DNA of 64,000 bases from Escherichia coli (GTDB lineage Bacteria; Pseudomonadota; Gammaproteobacteria; Enterobacterales; Enterobacteriaceae): the NCBI RefSeq assembly GCF_017348835.2, contig NZ_CP071375.1. One strand, 5' to 3'. Position 1 is the first letter of the stretch, and every line of letters starts with the position of its first letter. The position numbers and the translations under genes were made by a program. The notes under the pieces were generated by a model. The model saw nothing but the letters and a program-made list of their open reading frames with translations. It had not been told where the DNA came from and did not search any database. Below are positions 12,434 through 18,218 of the stretch, piece by piece.

Positions 12434-13084
12434 TTACATGGCGTAGTAATACGCTTTCACCTGCTCCCAGTCCGCTTTGGGAATTGGCTCCAGATATTTT
12501 TCCAGCTGGCGGAAGTCATGATTAATCGCTTTATCGCGACGCAAGCGGCGACGACTTTTCTCCAGGTCAAGAAAACCAGCTTCTGCCTTACCTTCTGTTT
12601 TCACATAGATATGGCGAACATAACAACAGCCATGCTGACGATTAATGCTATGCATTTTCTTAAACGCCAGCGCCACTGCTTTCAACATGGCTTGCCGTAC
12701 TTCGTCAGAATAAGGCGATACTGCATGCTGGGCATACCAGTCAGCAATGCTGATGAACCCCGCCATATCTTCAGTCACCAGCAACGCTCGCCATTCACCC
12801 TCAATTTTCACCGCTTCACCAAAAACGATCTTCGGCACGATGACACCGGCCCGTTCCAGTTCTTTAATTACCGCAACCTCACGGACAATCGTTGGTCGGC
12901 CGAAAGGATAACGTACGGAATGAAACAGATGATGCGTCATGCGCTTTACATATAGCTTTTTGCCGTTGCGCTCGACGCATTGCACCCCGCTCATACCATT
13001 ACGGCGATAGTTAGGCTCTTCAACCCAGTCGCCCTCTGTTGCCCACCAGTGATTAAATTCGTCGTGCTTTGCTGAAACTGCCAT
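12434..13084 (-). CDS. inaA: Acid-inducible Kdo/WaaP-family kinase-like protein InaA
   Basis: The 216-aa ORF begins MAVSAKHDEFNHWWATEGDWVEEPNYRRNGMSGVQCVERNGKKLYVKR and ends in ...WEQVKAYYYAM. Confidence 0.95.
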   Translation of the reverse strand: MAVSAKHDEFNHWWATEGDWVEEPNYRRNGMSGVQCVERNGKKLYVKRMTHHLFHSVRYPFGRPTIVREVAVIKELERAGVIVPKIVFGEAVKIEGEWRALLVTEDMAGFISIADWYAQHAVSPYSDEVRQAMLKAVALAFKKMHSINRQHGCCYVRHIYVKTEGKAEAGFLDLEKSRRRLRRDKAINHDFRQLEKYLEPIPKADWEQVKAYYYAM

Positions 13085-13164: not shown

Positions 13165-14355
13165 TTAATGAATTTCTTTTGCCACTACTAGCGCGACACC
13201 GCTTTTACCCTTCATTTGCAGCGCATAGACTCCACCAGCCACTACCACTAATAGTGCGCCCAGCAGATAAATCATTCGGTAGCCAGTATGTGCAACCATC
13301 ATCCCCATCACACAGGCTCCCAGCGCCAGGCCTGCATCCATCGCATTGAAGAAGAGGGAGTTTGCGACACCGATTTTATGCGGTTCCACTGAACTGATAA
13401 TCTGCGTCTGAAAAACTGGCGTCACGGAACCATACCCGATACCAATCAACGCGCCAGAAACAACCATCATTATGCTTCCCTGGGTGTAGCCGAGAACCAC
13501 CAGTCCTACCGTAAAGAACACAAGGCAAGGGTAAACCACATATTTCGGTCCTTTTTTGTCGCAGACATTGCCGGTAAAGGTACGGCAGATCATCAGGAAG
13601 ATGGCGTAGCAAAGCAGGAAATTACTGGCCGCCGACATCAGATTAAGTTCGCGGGCGTAAAGCGCCAGAAAGGCAGAAACCCCGGCATACGAAAAGGTCA
13701 TAAAGAATGTAACCATGGCAAACGGCAATGCCGCGCGATCGAACATGGCGGCGAAGCCCATCTTTGGCTTTGAACCGTCGGCATGGCTGATAACCGGCGG
13801 CACGGTCATAATCAGCGACAGGATAATCCCCACCGCCGCAACGCCAGTACATAACCAGAAAGCCATATTAAAGGCCTCCCAGCGCGCCATATTCAGGCCA
13901 ATCCACGGCCCGACCACCATTGCCAGCCCCATTGCCAGAGAGAAAAAACTGATGCCCTCCCCACGTCGGGAGGCCGGGATCAGCCGCGCGGAAATCGTTC
14001 CCTTTACCGTTGTGATAACCCCGAAGGTAATACCATGAAGCACCCTAATAAAAAGCAGTGATTCTATTGAGTGGCAAAAAGGATACAGCGCAGTGACCAC
14101 CAAAAAGGCCAGAGAAGAGAGCACCAGAATAGTTTTATTCGAATATTTACCCACCCATTGCCCGGCAAAGGGTCGAATAACAATCGCCGCAATTAAAAAT
14201 AATGTCACCAGCAGACCAGCTTTATCAGGAGAGGCATGCAAGCGGTCAGAGATATAAATTGGCAACAATGTTAGTAAAACATAAAAGACGAAGAAAATAA
14301 TAAAGCTGATGATGGTTATTGCCCAAAAATCCTTCGTCCATAACTTCTCTTTCAT
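13165..14355 (-). CDS. Major facilitator superfamily transporter (12-TM, efflux-type), substrate unknown
   Basis: The 396-aa ORF is hydrophobic throughout, with about 12 predicted helices. It has an MFS loop 2-3-like motif (GQWVGKYSNK) and is divergent from a LysR regulator. Confidence 0.85.
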   Translation of the reverse strand: MKEKLWTKDFWAITIISFIIFFVFYVLLTLLPIYISDRLHASPDKAGLLVTLFLIAAIVIRPFAGQWVGKYSNKTILVLSSLAFLVVTALYPFCHSIESLLFIRVLHGITFGVITTVKGTISARLIPASRRGEGISFFSLAMGLAMVVGPWIGLNMARWEAFNMAFWLCTGVAAVGIILSLIMTVPPVISHADGSKPKMGFAAMFDRAALPFAMVTFFMTFSYAGVSAFLALYARELNLMSAASNFLLCYAIFLMICRTFTGNVCDKKGPKYVVYPCLVFFTVGLVVLGYTQGSIMMVVSGALIGIGYGSVTPVFQTQIISSVEPHKIGVANSLFFNAMDAGLALGACVMGMMVAHTGYRMIYLLGALLVVVAGGVYALQMKGKSGVALVVAKEIH

Positions 14356-14461
14356 ACCCTACCGCCTGTCAGGATGACGCACGCAGACAACACTCCCGTT
14401 ACTGCGGTTGCGTCAAATTGTGATGTACTTTGCAGAACAGAAGTATAAATGGCGGCATGCT

Positions 14462-14476
14462 ATTAGAGAAATTAAT
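14462..14476. promoter_or_regulatory. Candidate LysR-type T-N11-A box in the divergent MFS/LysR spacer
   Basis: ATTAGAGAAATTAAT is an interrupted palindrome (ATTA-N7-TAAT) 31 nt upstream of the LysR ATG. Confidence 0.35.
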
Positions 14477-14506
14477 CGTTTTAATATTATTGATTAGCAA
14501 ACTCTA

Positions 14507-15385
14507 ATGACTCTTACCCAAATAAATTCTTTACTCGCCGTGCTGGATTACGGTGGCTTTACTGAAGCCAGCAAGCGATTGTTCATGACGCAGTCGGCGG
14601 TAAGTCAGGCAATTGCTGCCCTCGAACAAGAACTTGGTGTGAATATACTGTTACGCGATCGCCGTAAAGCTATACAACTGACCACAGCAGGTCATCGCAT
14701 TGTGCAACATCTGCGCGCCATTAATCGGGAAGTTAACGCAGTAAAAGAGATAGCCGAGCAGGAAAAGCAGAACCCTCAAAGAACGCTGAGACTTGGTTGT
14801 TTCCCCAGCGTCTGCGCCTGTATCTTACCGGTTGTGATTCGCTACTTTGAAATTCATCATCCGAATATAAAAATTATTCCTTTTGAGGAAAATAGCACAG
14901 CGATTATTGATTCGCTTCAGAATGAATCCATTGATGCCGGTTTTGTTCATTTTCCGGTGAGCGGAATGTACTCCGTGCCCATTTATCAGGATAAATTCAC
15001 CGTAGTGTTACCGCCCAACCATGCTCTGGCAAAAAACAGCACTATTACAGTGGAAGAATTAATGGGTGAACCATTAATCATTAGTAAAGGACGCTATGAA
15101 TTAAGCATTATGGCACTATTTAAAGAAAAGAATATTACCCCACAGATAAAATATGAATTTAATCACCCGGATACAGCGATCAGTTTTATTCGACAGGGAT
15201 TAGGCATCGCCTTATTACCAGAGTTAACGCTGAAAACCATTGCAGATGAATTGTGTTCCGTTCCTCTCGAACCAACCTTCTATCGACAGATTTCGTTGCT
15301 GGCTAAAGAAAAGCCGGTAGAAGGCAGTCCACTGTTTTTACTACAAATGTGTACGGAACAACTCGTGGTGAGTGGAAAAATTTGA
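14507..15385 (+). CDS. LysR-family transcriptional regulator (full length)
   Basis: The 292-aa ORF has an N-terminal wHTH (FTEASKRLFMTQSAVSQAIAALEQELG) and a C-terminal substrate-binding fold. As I recall, K-12 carries only a short LysR fragment (yfaH) at this locus. Confidence 0.9.
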   Translation: MTLTQINSLLAVLDYGGFTEASKRLFMTQSAVSQAIAALEQELGVNILLRDRRKAIQLTTAGHRIVQHLRAINREVNAVKEIAEQEKQNPQRTLRLGCFPSVCACILPVVIRYFEIHHPNIKIIPFEENSTAIIDSLQNESIDAGFVHFPVSGMYSVPIYQDKFTVVLPPNHALAKNSTITVEELMGEPLIISKGRYELSIMALFKEKNITPQIKYEFNHPDTAISFIRQGLGIALLPELTLKTIADELCSVPLEPTFYRQISLLAKEKPVEGSPLFLLQMCTEQLVVSGKI

Positions 15386-15453
15386 TGTAAGACATGAGAT
15401 TGATGACAAATGTAAGATTGCCTGATTCGCCACACTTAGTTGGCCTGTAGTCT

Positions 15454-15665
15454 TTACCAGGCGTAATAATTCGTTTTCACCTGATTTTGGTCCACTTTGT
15501 GAATTAGCGATATATATTTATCCAGTTTAGGGAAGTGACAATGACTCCAGGTAGAAACCAGTATGAAGCGCCCGACTCACTGTCAAAACCGATTGTTGAG
15601 AGTAATGACACTCCGGCGAACAGTACACAGTTTACTCTGGAGCCACTCTCAATCTTCAAGTGGGA
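15454..15665 (-). pseudogene. Degenerate inaA-like 3' remnant
   Basis: Hand alignment of 15454-15546 to inaA 12434-12526 gives 66 of 93 identical positions without gaps. The remnant translates to ...HFPKLDKYISLIHKVDQNQVKTNYYAW-stop, against InaA ...HDFRQLEKYLEPIPKADWEQVKAYYYAM-stop. Upstream parts need indels and contain a stop. It is preceded by a REP-like sequence at 15419-15450. Confidence 0.6.
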
Positions 15666-15850
15666 TACCTAATAACTTGTCAGGGAAGTTATCAATATCT
15701 GTTTGTTACTTATTACCGTGTTTATTAACAATAATGATACTTTCTAACATGCGTAAAGGTCTTCGTAATAAAATGAGCTAAATTTGATAGTGAATATATT
15801 CTGCAAAGATTAAATTGTATCTTGTTAACTCACAATACAAGGAATCATTT

Positions 15851-16921
15851 ATGCCAAATACATCTATTCAATTATCTCGCTGTAATCTTTTACAAAATAA
15901 TAAATTGCAAACAGCAGAAATTTACAAAGAATCACAACAAACCGCGAAACTTGAGATTTTTTGCAATGAGTTTCTAAAAATATCTCAAAGTAGATTCGGG
16001 TTATCAACCTCAGCAGACAACATAGCTAATTTATTGGCTTTTTTCACGAAAGCCTCAGATGAAATTGATAGTATCAAGACCCAAAAAATTGACGTTCACA
16101 GTTATGGTTTCGTACCAATAAGACATTTTGTCGAGCATGTCATAACGTATAAAAATGAATTTGCAGCGGATTATGAACCCTATACCCTTACCTTTACCCG
16201 AGGTGAAAACAACGAAGGTGTTTTGAGTATCGAAAGCAAAGAAGGGTCTATTTCACAAAGAACAATAAACTTAAATGAATATGAAACTGCAATTAACATC
16301 ATCAATGAGCATGTTGCAAAAGAAAATACCCACAACACGGTCCAGTCACTGACAGAAAAAGACATTTCAAAAATAAACAGCTCTGATAAGCCTTATAAAA
16401 CCAGCAGTGAGGAAAGTATTAAAAGTCAACTTTACAGCGATCAAAAAAAATATGCAGACCTGCTACAACATTCTGAGAAAAATACAGAATGGTACAAATA
16501 CGCATCCTCCGAGGAACGCTATGATAAATTCAAGAATTCTTCTAAGGAAATTAAAAACACCTACAAGCAAATTGTACAAGCGCAGAAAAAATTGAACCAA
16601 ATGAAATATATCAATAAATTAGGTGGTGAGCTTATCGATATCGCCGACAAAAAGTTAGCACCATTAATAAATGATAGTTTCAGCTATACACGAGATTTCT
16701 TTGCTTACTCAAAACAGGAAAATAACATCTTCACGTTTGATAATTCTAAGTTTGAAGATCCAAAGGAAAAAAAAGGTTTAATGGTACAACACAGCAATGG
16801 GCAACTGATTATTACTGGTGAGTATTGTCCTGAAGGTGTGCAAACAGCATTCACCCAAGAACAATATGATAAATTAATAAGATACATTAATATTTTCTTT
16901 ACTTTCCCGAAATGCGAATAA
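15851..16921 (+). CDS. Hypothetical protein, 356 aa, no recognisable domain (AT-rich orphan gene)
   Basis: A 1.07-kb open frame in AT-rich DNA, where stops should be frequent. AAGGA lies 7 nt upstream of ATG 15851. The track ORF starts at an upstream TTG (15815), which I consider less likely. No signal peptide or TM segment. The protein is Lys/Glu/Asn/Ser-rich with a probable helical central region. Confidence 0.7.
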   Translation: MPNTSIQLSRCNLLQNNKLQTAEIYKESQQTAKLEIFCNEFLKISQSRFGLSTSADNIANLLAFFTKASDEIDSIKTQKIDVHSYGFVPIRHFVEHVITYKNEFAADYEPYTLTFTRGENNEGVLSIESKEGSISQRTINLNEYETAINIINEHVAKENTHNTVQSLTEKDISKINSSDKPYKTSSEESIKSQLYSDQKKYADLLQHSEKNTEWYKYASSEERYDKFKNSSKEIKNTYKQIVQAQKKLNQMKYINKLGGELIDIADKKLAPLINDSFSYTRDFFAYSKQENNIFTFDNSKFEDPKEKKGLMVQHSNGQLIITGEYCPEGVQTAFTQEQYDKLIRYINIFFTFPKCE

Positions 16922-17109
16922 TACTGTATATTATAAACTACATTACAATTTATTATTGAGCCCTATTCATACTGTTTAAAGAATAACAATACCCAGTGTT
17001 AGCTTTCCTAACAAATGAGTTTTACGCAAATATGTTGGCATCTTTTTTAACAGGATGCTCAGGTGAATGAATAGAATAACCGGTAGTAGCATTATTTCGC
17101 TTTAGCTGA

Positions 17110-17131
17110 GGATGGCGCATGAACGCCATCC
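17110..17131. terminator. Perfect 8-bp GC-rich hairpin just downstream of glpQ
   Basis: GGATGGCG-CATGAA-CGCCATCC lies 11 nt beyond the glpQ stop. There is no clear U-tract on either strand, so terminator function is uncertain. Confidence 0.4.
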
Positions 17132-17141
17132 TGCAGTAGCA

Positions 17142-18218
17142 TTACTCTTTATTAAGGAATTTTACTGCCTTATCAGGGAAATCAGTAAACAGCCCATTTA
17201 CACCCGCTTTGTTATACAGAACATCATATAACTGATTCACATCAGTAGTGTATTCAGGCAGTTTATCTGACCGCACGGTATAAGGATGCACTACCAGTTT
17301 ATTCTGCTGAGCATCTTGCACCATGCCAGTGAGTTTGATATTACCCGGCTGCGATGTCTCCTCAATCAACATATGGTAATCTGGGCCAATACCATCAGCA
17401 TATTCCGCCACCTGTTTCATGGCACCCGGCTTAAACATCCAGTCATAGCTGTAATTAACCCAGCTTCCGTCCGGTTGTTTCTGCTGAGTTTCGTTCCAGT
17501 CGGTATAGGCAATCAGCTGTACCAGGTTGAGGTCCATACCCATTTTAGGTTCCAGCTCATTCTTAATACGCTTCAGTTCATCAGCATCAAAGCATTGCAG
17601 ATAAACTTTGTCGTCCTTACCGGTGTAACCATATTTCTTCAGCACTTCCAGCGTTTTTGCCGCAATATCCTTCCCTTCCTGATGATGGAACCACGGCGCT
17701 TTAATTTCTGGATAGATACCGATATTTTTCCCGGTAGAGTGATTTAACCCCTGAACAAATTCAATCTCTTCTTCAAAGGAGTGCACCCGGAAGTCGGACT
17801 TACCCATTGGGAAACGCCCCGGATAAGTCTGCACTTTTTTACCGTTTTCAATATCGAAACCTTCGGTAAATTTCAGCGACTTAATTTCATCCAGCGTGAA
17901 ATCTATCGCGTAGTAACGACCGTCTTTGCGCGCCCGATCCGGGAAACGATCGGCAACATCAGTAACACGATCGAGGTAATGGTCATGCAGAACAACCAGA
18001 TGGTCGTCTTTGGTCATCACCAAATCCTGTTCCAGATAATCCGCTCCCTGCGCATACGCCATCGCTTTTGCTGGCAGCGTATGCTCCGGCAAATATCCAC
18101 TGGCACCGCGATGGGCGATGACTATTTTTTCGTTGCTGTTCGCCGCCATTGCACTGCTTCCCATGACTATAGTGCTCATCATGATCGCCATGCTAAGGTT
18201 TTTCAGCGTCAATTTCAT
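17142..18218 (-). CDS. glpQ: Periplasmic glycerophosphodiester phosphodiesterase
   Basis: MKLTLKNLSMAIMMSTIVMGSSAMAANSNEKIVIAHRGASGYLPEHT starts at codon 20 of the track ORF and gives 358 aa with a signal peptide. Confidence 0.97.
   Translation of the reverse strand: MKLTLKNLSMAIMMSTIVMGSSAMAANSNEKIVIAHRGASGYLPEHTLPAKAMAYAQGADYLEQDLVMTKDDHLVVLHDHYLDRVTDVADRFPDRARKDGRYYAIDFTLDEIKSLKFTEGFDIENGKKVQTYPGRFPMGKSDFRVHSFEEEIEFVQGLNHSTGKNIGIYPEIKAPWFHHQEGKDIAAKTLEVLKKYGYTGKDDKVYLQCFDADELKRIKNELEPKMGMDLNLVQLIAYTDWNETQQKQPDGSWVNYSYDWMFKPGAMKQVAEYADGIGPDYHMLIEETSQPGNIKLTGMVQDAQQNKLVVHPYTVRSDKLPEYTTDVNQLYDVLYNKAGVNGLFTDFPDKAVKFLNKE

Follow-up and report, generated by a model that had tools for sequence, protein, structure and literature searches.

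What is the AT-rich open reading frame (ORF) that lies beside glpQ in Escherichia coli contig NZ_CP071375.1, and does it still serve the bacteria that carry it? We addressed this question in a 64,000-nucleotide stretch of that contig (hereafter the window), where the ORF occupies positions 15851–16921 of the plus strand, starts with ATG, and extends for 356 codons plus a stop. Its product is a 356-amino-acid protein of 41 kDa (pI 6.1). The counterpart in O157:H7 Sakai is ECs_3123 (NP_311150.1, also written ECs3123), which is 90% identical in amino acids to the window ORF, and E. coli PE164 contains DNA that is 100% identical to it. A first-pass annotation, made from the sequence alone, had described an orphan gene of no recognisable family in strain-variable, probably horizontally acquired DNA, and had suggested a secreted effector, a phage-defence or abortive-infection protein, or an orphan toxin as possible roles. 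On balance we think it probable that the ORF is a real, weakly constrained, dispensable gene confined to Escherichia, and that its product may have a non-enzymatic binding or scaffold role of conditional benefit. The best-supported account of its history is that it was imported once on a small AT-rich fragment, and that it ranks as an ordinary orphan of some strains, not as a new system.

We concluded that the ORF is a genuine coding sequence. Its G+C content was 358/1071 = 33%, compared with 46% for glpQ, 49% for a nearby gene of the major facilitator superfamily (MFS), and 51% for the whole window. The position of the ORF and the two local counts given earlier (22/60 at 16381–16440 and 16/60 at 16561–16620) were exact. 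At the base composition of the AT-rich insertion that contains the ORF (described below), the per-codon stop probability was 0.075, which yields a probability of about 1e-12 for 356 open codons. The longest stop-free run observed was 375 codons, whereas 2000 shufflings of the insert produced none longer than 171. G+C was higher at codon position 1 (0.39) than at position 2 (0.30), the pattern of a real gene. A Shine-Dalgarno-like AAGGA (15839–15843, plus strand) stands 7 nt before the ATG, as the first-pass annotation had stated, and both this motif and the start codon were invariant in an alignment of 14 alleles. That is, because the odds of a chance frame were so low, because no shuffle approached the observed run, and because the start signals were invariant and position 1 was enriched in G+C, the ORF must be considered real. 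A de novo origin was rejected, as the ORF is too long for such a base composition.

Searches for relatives of the protein recovered nothing but the gene itself. A profile search of Pfam-A gave a best E of 0.042 (14 bits, below the cut-off of 29), neither NCBIfam nor the defence profiles of PADLOC-DB v2 gave a match at E up to 1, a scan of PHROGs gave no match, and the best hit in a sequence search of the PDB was T4 gp53 at E 0.32. Results from phmmer against 1.84e9 representative proteins comprised 12 matches, all of them fragments of the orphan itself (at least 68% identity). A word-indexed search of 5.8e9 protein clusters produced 23 clusters, all from E. coli (at least 82% identity). Tblastn and related scans found no relative in GTDB species representatives, viral contigs, or a phage collection, and the sole match by tblastn against plasmids was NZ_CP141089.1, a 4.94-Mb E. 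coli replicon filed in PLSDB that is evidently a chromosome filed as a plasmid. We also examined 20 metagenome loci, picked by DNA pattern irrespective of the state of the ORF and in some cases at very low coverage; all held E. coli-type alleles. Across all searches, alleles of the gene were confined to E. coli and cryptic Escherichia, and we found no publication on ECs_3123. The earlier description of an orphan without a recognisable family was thus upheld. One ENA metagenome protein of 408 amino acids (P0023) fuses a nucleotidyltransferase-like N-terminus (PF01467/PF05636) to orphan residues ~14–135; most probably it is a chimera created during assembly or gene calling.

The gene resides on a discrete insertion. 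The first-pass annotation was correct in recognising an AT-rich block, but had placed its start at 15666 instead of near 15398. We fetched loci from other species with the LysR protein as query. The insertion was missing from those of Escherichia sp. MOD1-EC7003, E. whittamii, and Escherichia sp. E1V33, and also from the K-12-like E. coli M15. These empty sites match the window up to 15397 and again from 17109 onward, placing the junctions at about 15397/15398 and 17108/17109 with an ambiguity of 1–4 nt. In MOD1-EC7003, E. whittamii, and E1V33 the gene order is inaA-MFS-LysR-glpQ, with only ~48 bp from the LysR stop to the glpQ stop. The insertion is therefore 1711 bp long (15398–17108; 34.1% G+C) and lies between the region of the LysR stop codon and the glpQ terminator. 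Its left flank ends in TGATGTAAGACA and its right flank begins with GGATGGCGCATGAACGCCATCC, which belongs to the glpQ terminator hairpin. Both junctions were identical in 14/14 alleles examined, and we found neither a target-site duplication nor terminal inverted repeats at the insert ends.

At the left end of the insert we found an inaA-like relic (15454–15536, minus strand) that represents the last 25–27 codons of a diverged inaA-like gene, so the remnant reported by the first-pass annotation does exist. In nucleotides it is 73.5% identical to the resident inaA at its 3' end (12434–12516; blastn E 3e-8), and its translation, FPKLDKYISLIHKVDQNQVKTNYYAW*, shares 52% identity with InaA residues 191–215 (tblastn E 3e-4). 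The relic is frameshifted in some alleles. At the right end lies a possible relic of a foreign glpQ-downstream region (17053–17108), consisting of ACAGGATG, a degenerate hairpin, and then TAGTAGCATTA; the last ~55 nt of the insert bear a marginal resemblance to the glpQ-downstream region (shuffle P 0.014–0.027). The resident glpQ terminator hairpin (17110–17131; GGATGGCG-CATGAA-CGCCATCC) is outside the insert, in the right flank. From the inaA relic and the possible glpQ-downstream relic at the two ends of the insert, we infer a homologous donor locus: the sequences suggest that the insert originated in the corresponding spacer between inaA and glpQ in a diverged genome. Horizontal acquisition, proposed earlier, agrees with the 1.71-kb insertion, its absence from other Escherichia species, and the diverged inaA relic.

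The claim of strain variability was also borne out. Orphan carriers numbered 1052 among 5426 complete E. coli genomes (~19%), and in all of them the gene was chromosomal, in single copy, and at one locus. Carriers include O157:H7, the enteroaggregative E. coli (EAEC) strain 042, isolates from urine, animals, and water, and one cryptic-clade strain. In TW10509 (L007), AST85 (L017), and locus L039, glpQ is ~7% diverged from the window, a cryptic-clade level of divergence, while the orphan allele is nearly identical to those of the ordinary E. coli loci L009 and L010. A nearly identical orphan beside so diverged a glpQ indicates that recombination has transferred the insert among lineages separately from the flanking DNA.

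We then asked what selection has preserved. Amino-acid constraint on the gene is weak, and its open frame is maintained by selection. The ratio of non-synonymous to synonymous rates (dN/dS, or omega), estimated by the Nei-Gojobori method (NG86), was 0.38–0.61 in 14/15 allele pairs (dS 0.01–0.13); the remaining pair, the closest, gave 2.28 on only 2 synonymous differences. In the same genomes omega was 0.01–0.14 for glpQ, 0.05–0.20 for inaA, 0.00–0.04 for glpT, and 0.02–0.05 for the MFS gene. Within the orphan, the C-terminal domain had omega of 0.12–0.47 in most allele pairs and 0.89 in one of nine. With indel columns removed, the 14 alleles contained no in-frame stop, compared with 5.9–7.5 that the observed mutation spectrum would predict (P 0.0004–0.0014); the 8-allele sample behind the lower expectation had been picked without regard to intactness. 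Indel events were also fewer in the ORF (3 per 1071 nt) than in the non-coding insert (7 per 640 nt; P = 0.038). Because in-frame stops were absent, indels were in deficit, and the frame of the O157 allele had been restored after a shift (see below), we concluded that the frame is protected.

Divergence along the insert was uneven. The mean pairwise difference was 0.028 for ORF codons 1–155, 0.129 for codons 156–210, and 0.039 for codons 211–356, compared with 0.053 for the inaA relic, 0.056 for the 3' non-coding part of the insert, and 0.075 for the glpQ-downstream relic. The N- and C-terminal parts of the ORF thus diverge about half as fast as the non-coding relics. Codons 156–210 form a hypervariable central segment (16316–16480, plus strand) with two deep haplotypes, in which the density of variable sites was 0.31–0.34 versus 0.08–0.12 elsewhere in the ORF. 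Between the haplotypes, dS was 0.3–0.5 and dN about 0.22–0.25. Positive selection on this segment was rejected, as omega was 0.55–0.85 and dS was raised too. The segment also tolerates the 11-residue frameshifted stretch of the O157 allele, and appears to be an unconstrained linker that carries old or imported variation. The best conserved part of the insert was 15537–15850 (mean pairwise difference 0.016–0.017); promoter function, H-NS binding, or an encoded RNA could underlie this conservation, and an Rfam search of 15300–17250 gave no match at E up to 1.

The same gene is being broken repeatedly. An insertion site of IS1, an insertion sequence, lies near codon 256 (approximately 16616–16624, plus strand). 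This site is uninterrupted in the window and in 824/1051 carriers, and interrupted in 227/1051 (21.6%); in a sample of 60 evenly spaced carriers, 13 had IS1 alleles, EAEC 042 among them. A tract of eight adenines (A8) at 16443–16450 (plus strand) is a frameshift hot spot, where contraction to A7 leads to a 208-amino-acid product in some lineages (P0019, standing for 541 member sequences); locus L013 and strain S1-CHI-01-A carry this change. The truncated alleles of 309 amino acids (P0009, P0010) end just past a second such hot spot, the A8 tract at 16767–16774 (plus strand), and the cryptic-clade strain TW10509 has a +1 insertion in the gene. Frameshift alleles, A7 and others, are common. Among the 20 metagenome loci, 12 were intact, 2 stopped at the IS1 site, and the remainder had indels or were partial; one locus had a nonsense change, TCA to TAA, at codon 135. 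The first-pass annotation had held that disruption in most strains would count against a functional gene. Disruption affects roughly a quarter or more of the carriers, not most of them.

The commonest allele, that of the O157 type (1484 member sequences, at least 1000 contigs), bears on both the frame and its annotation. At residues 199–209 this O157-type allele reads RNIQTCYYILR against KKYADLLQHSE in the window. Its DNA has an A8-to-A7 change in the tract at 16443–16450, followed ~35 nt downstream by an A5-to-A6 change, a compensated double frameshift; the A5 tract lies at 16478–16482 (plus strand) and is A6 in O157-type alleles, where the frame is restored. The O157 form is derived, because every other haplotype, including that of the cryptic clade, has the frame of the window. 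The reference protein used by the NCBI Prokaryotic Genome Annotation Pipeline (PGAP), WP_001301786.1 / WP_001134028.1, is the O157-type allele. PGAP labels open, ancestral 356-codon alleles (loci L001, L012, L014, L015, and L017) as ‘frameshifted’ pseudogenes, and does so for the PE164 sequence, which is identical to the window, too; O157-type alleles carry no such flag. Because the reference is itself the doubly frameshifted allele, the flag is wrong. We also rejected the possibility that the window allele is a pseudogene, as it contains the full 356-codon ORF in the ancestral frame.

The protein itself offers few clues to function. It is hydrophilic (GRAVY, the grand average of hydropathy, −0.73), and the maximum 19-residue Kyte-Doolittle mean was 0.63. 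We recognised no hydrophobic segment, signal peptide, membrane segment, or catalytic motif in it. The earlier statements that it lacks a membrane segment and that its first 22 residues lack acidic residues agreed with this hydropathy and with the composition we checked. Those 22 residues are free of Asp and Glu and rich in Ser, Thr, Asn, Gln, and Leu, a non-specific composition at 33% G+C. Profile and structure searches, a kind of check proposed earlier, gave no confident family match. Full-length AlphaFold2 on a shallow alignment reached a mean predicted local distance difference test score (pLDDT) of 43, and Foldseek of this model against the PDB returned nothing at E 0.001 or better. The predicted layout comprises helices at residues 21–104, a three-strand sheet plus helix at 112–161, long helices at 184–276, and a hairpin plus helix at 310–350. 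A predicted helix/three-strand sheet/helix module (residues 86–165; 16106–16345, plus strand) had a moderate model and only generic alpha-beta-beta-beta-alpha matches. The SRP9/SRP14 Alu-domain fold is among the closest known modules of this kind, and an assignment to SRP9/14 or to a double-stranded RNA-binding domain was rejected, the matches being generic. The idea that the N- and C-terminal modules are internal duplicates was dropped: BLASTP found nothing, and Smith-Waterman comparison gave P = 0.016 for whole halves and P = 0.43 for the modules.

From these features we propose how the gene may work. The soluble 41-kDa product would consist of an N-terminal helical region with an alpha-beta-beta-beta-alpha module, a tolerant linker, long helices, and a C-terminal alpha/beta module. 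An open frame is preserved by selection, which bears weakly on the amino-acid sequence and not at all on the central segment. The protein might, we suggest with low confidence, be a non-catalytic binding or scaffold protein that confers a conditional, niche-specific benefit. In laboratory culture its expression is probably poor, as is common for AT-rich foreign DNA. The gene is dispensable, and many lineages are losing it by IS1 insertion and by slippage at homopolymers.

Several observations weigh against this reading. The Nei-Gojobori method ignores transition bias and AT-richness, and we therefore redistributed the observed substitutions among sites of the same starting base. In this spectrum-aware test the orphan had 40 synonymous and 102 non-synonymous changes versus a neutral 35.5 and 101 (omega about 0.89, P = 0.21), and exclusion of the central segment lowered omega to about 0.72 (P = 0.07). 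The glpQ control had 126 and 16 changes versus 46.5 and 90 expected (omega 0.07). In the orphan the three codon positions had nearly equal shares of the variable sites (57/39/49). A simple scan found no clear promoter, with no sigma-70 consensus on the plus strand upstream of the ORF, and expression in carriers is presumed. The low score of the full-length model makes the architecture tentative, and the binding or scaffold role is deduced from motifs that are absent rather than from positive evidence. The idea of a homologous donor locus has one solid relic, that of inaA, and one marginal relic, that of the glpQ-downstream region (P about 0.02).

The main rival explanation is that the gene is a decaying relic, functional in its donor and functionless in E. 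coli, which evolves near-neutrally and is not yet destroyed. The first-pass annotation had named dN/dS near 1 among homologues as evidence against its view. By Nei-Gojobori omega was 0.4–0.6, but the spectrum-aware value was about 0.9 and not significantly below 1, as a relic would predict, and the even spread of variable sites over codon positions points the same way. The relic would also explain why the commonest allele tolerates 11 frameshifted residues, why IS1 interrupts 22% of carriers and A8 frameshifts recur, why a metagenome contig holds a nonsense allele, and why ~81% of E. coli genomes are missing the gene. However, near-neutral decay does not predict the lack of in-frame stops in 14 alleles (P about 0.001), the indel deficit relative to the non-coding insert, or the compensating indel by which O157 restored the frame. 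Nor does it predict that the two terminal parts change half as fast as the flanking relics, or that a lineage with a glpQ diverged by 7% retains an intact ORF. We consider the decaying relic unlikely, though a serious contender.

A more ambitious reading is that ECs3123 founds an Escherichia-only family with a niche-specific role directed at the host or at phage, in which the terminal modules are conserved, the center diversifies, slippage at A8 tracts toggles or abolishes expression, and the frame is actively kept. Active maintenance of the frame enters this reading because the compensated frameshift of O157:H7 suggests it. A host- or phage-directed role, if true, would make this a new family; nothing here argues that it is likely, and we regard the reading as doubtful.

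The specific roles proposed by the first-pass annotation found no support, as we observed no family match, no mobility, and no partner gene. One of them is that the protein is a type III secretion substrate, targeted by its polar, acid-free N-terminus to the injectisome of LEE (locus of enterocyte effacement) or of E. coli type III secretion system 2 (ETT2), and acting in host cells. The Ser/Thr/Asn/Gln/Leu-rich first 22 residues, the effector-like size of an AT-rich orphan, and the hypervariable segment are compatible with such a substrate, and the gene is present in O157:H7, where it adjoins a LysR regulator reported as a LEE activator (PMC10819331). But an N-terminus of this composition is typical of any gene of 33% G+C, the protein matches no known effector family, and we found no homologue in other attaching-effacing or type III-secreting pathogens, prophages, or plasmids. 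Moreover, the gene is found at just one site in the chromosome, next to housekeeping genes, and its carriers include EAEC 042, which we take to be LEE-negative, isolates from urine, animals, and water, and a cryptic-clade strain. An effector role therefore has little probability.

The chance is about as small that the gene is a single-gene anti-phage defence, an abortive-infection protein, or a toxin, with the hypervariable center as its specificity determinant. Patchy distribution, frequent inactivation, AT-rich DNA, and a central segment with two deep haplotypes would all suit such a gene. However, PADLOC and PHROGs gave no match, and we recognised no motif of the nuclease, NTPase, TIR, or other effector type. 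No partner or immunity gene lies alongside: the only small ORF nearby (15541–15672) has at least 9 residue differences among 14 alleles and no family. The neighbors are nrd, inaA, and glp genes rather than a defence island, and the gene is not mobile as defence genes are: it keeps to one locus within a single genus, and no copy was found in phages or plasmids. In the central segment dS and dN are both raised, a pattern that suggests old or imported haplotypes in an unconstrained linker and not positive selection. Finally, a phase-variable gene in which the A8 tracts switch a conditionally costly product on and off is barely credible: independent frameshift alleles at two A8 tracts and a reversion-like compensation recall such switching, but eight adenines are short for efficient slippage in E. 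coli, the alleles appear to be fixed, not mixed, within lineages, and compensation at a different tract is ordinary mutation followed by repair.

The surroundings of the gene add further detail. The first-pass annotation had placed the ORF between the inaA remnant and glpQ, and this is correct; the MFS gene and a LysR gene of full length also stand between the resident inaA, which is complete, and the ORF. Downstream, glpQ is in convergent orientation. The neighbors (nrdAB, yfaE, inaA, MFS, LysR, glpQTABC) do not constitute a defence island. At the inaA-glpQ locus the MFS-LysR pair (13165–15385; z3494/z3495 of O-island 97) represents the ancestral state of the genus Escherichia; the pair occurs also in Kluyvera and beside inaA in ‘Enterobacteriaceae bacterium G50’. 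All four combinations of pair and orphan exist: both in this window and in O157; the orphan without the pair at loci L004, L006, L009, L011, and L017; the pair without the orphan in E. coli strain 806883-9-2019; and neither in K-12, where inaA, the yfaH pseudogene, and glpQ are present, in agreement with the earlier statement that K-12 is without the orphan. A deletion between MFS nt ~1085 and LysR nt ~633 left the K-12 yfaH as its 3' remnant, and the same deletion occurs both with and without the orphan insertion. In CX08 (L014) a degenerate IS630-like ISAeme16 transposase gene stands in place of the LysR region upstream of the orphan, and in WP4-S17-ESBL-08 (L015) the LysR gene has an internal stop.

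Within the insert, the region 15701–15850 (plus strand) is the presumed promoter and 5' untranslated region of the orphan. Sigma-70-like sites were depleted in 15300–17250, with 2, both on the minus strand, versus 8.0 ± 2.8 in shuffles. A 43-codon ORF (15541–15672, plus strand), which PGAP calls a hypothetical protein in PE164, was open in 14/14 alleles. The 14 allele translations differed at 9 or more amino acids, a count that leaves silent changes aside, and matched no family. With no sign of protein-level constraint, this ORF is probably not a gene.

Our finding is modest in weight, and its most useful by-products are the anatomy of the insertion, the relic of the donor locus, and the PGAP mis-annotation. 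The locus is a clean, datable example of the entry of an orphan gene into a core chromosomal locus and of its subsequent erosion. Its value as an example lies in the exact boundaries, the homologous-donor relic, and the presence of all four combinations with O-island 97. It also exposes a systematic RefSeq/PGAP error, in which the ancestral intact allele is called ‘frameshifted’ in many genomes.

Three known systems invite comparison with ECs_3123. O-island 97 of enterohaemorrhagic E. coli (EHEC) O157:H7 has been described as two ORFs, z3494 (MFS) and z3495 (a LysR-type activator of LEE via rcsF), and the orphan is not mentioned in that description (PMC10819331). The orphan resembles the O-island 97 genes in that it lies in the same inaA-glpQ variable region as their immediate neighbor and is absent from K-12. 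In contrast, the MFS and LysR genes are ancestral to Escherichia, belong to clear families, and have omega of 0.02–0.05, whereas the orphan came later, by a separate insertion, and occurs also without the pair. LEE and non-LEE effectors of EHEC share with the orphan an AT-rich composition, a similar size, a polar acid-free N-terminus, and presence in O157:H7. The orphan differs from them in having no relation in sequence or fold, in lying in neither a prophage nor an exchangeable effector locus, and in being present in at least one carrier that we take to be LEE-negative, EAEC 042.

The closest fit is to the lineage-restricted ORFans of E. coli, which Daubin and Ochman reportedly characterised as AT-rich, fast-evolving accessory genes. 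The orphan belongs to this class by its narrow clade, its AT-richness, and its raised dN/dS. Like these ORFans it is confined to one genus, has 33% G+C and no homologues, lies in a small strain-variable insertion, is often inactivated, and has dN/dS several-fold above that of its neighbors. It departs from the typical ORFan in being longer (356 codons), in having a hypervariable center, and in that the relics in its insert point to a homologous chromosomal locus rather than to an obvious phage.

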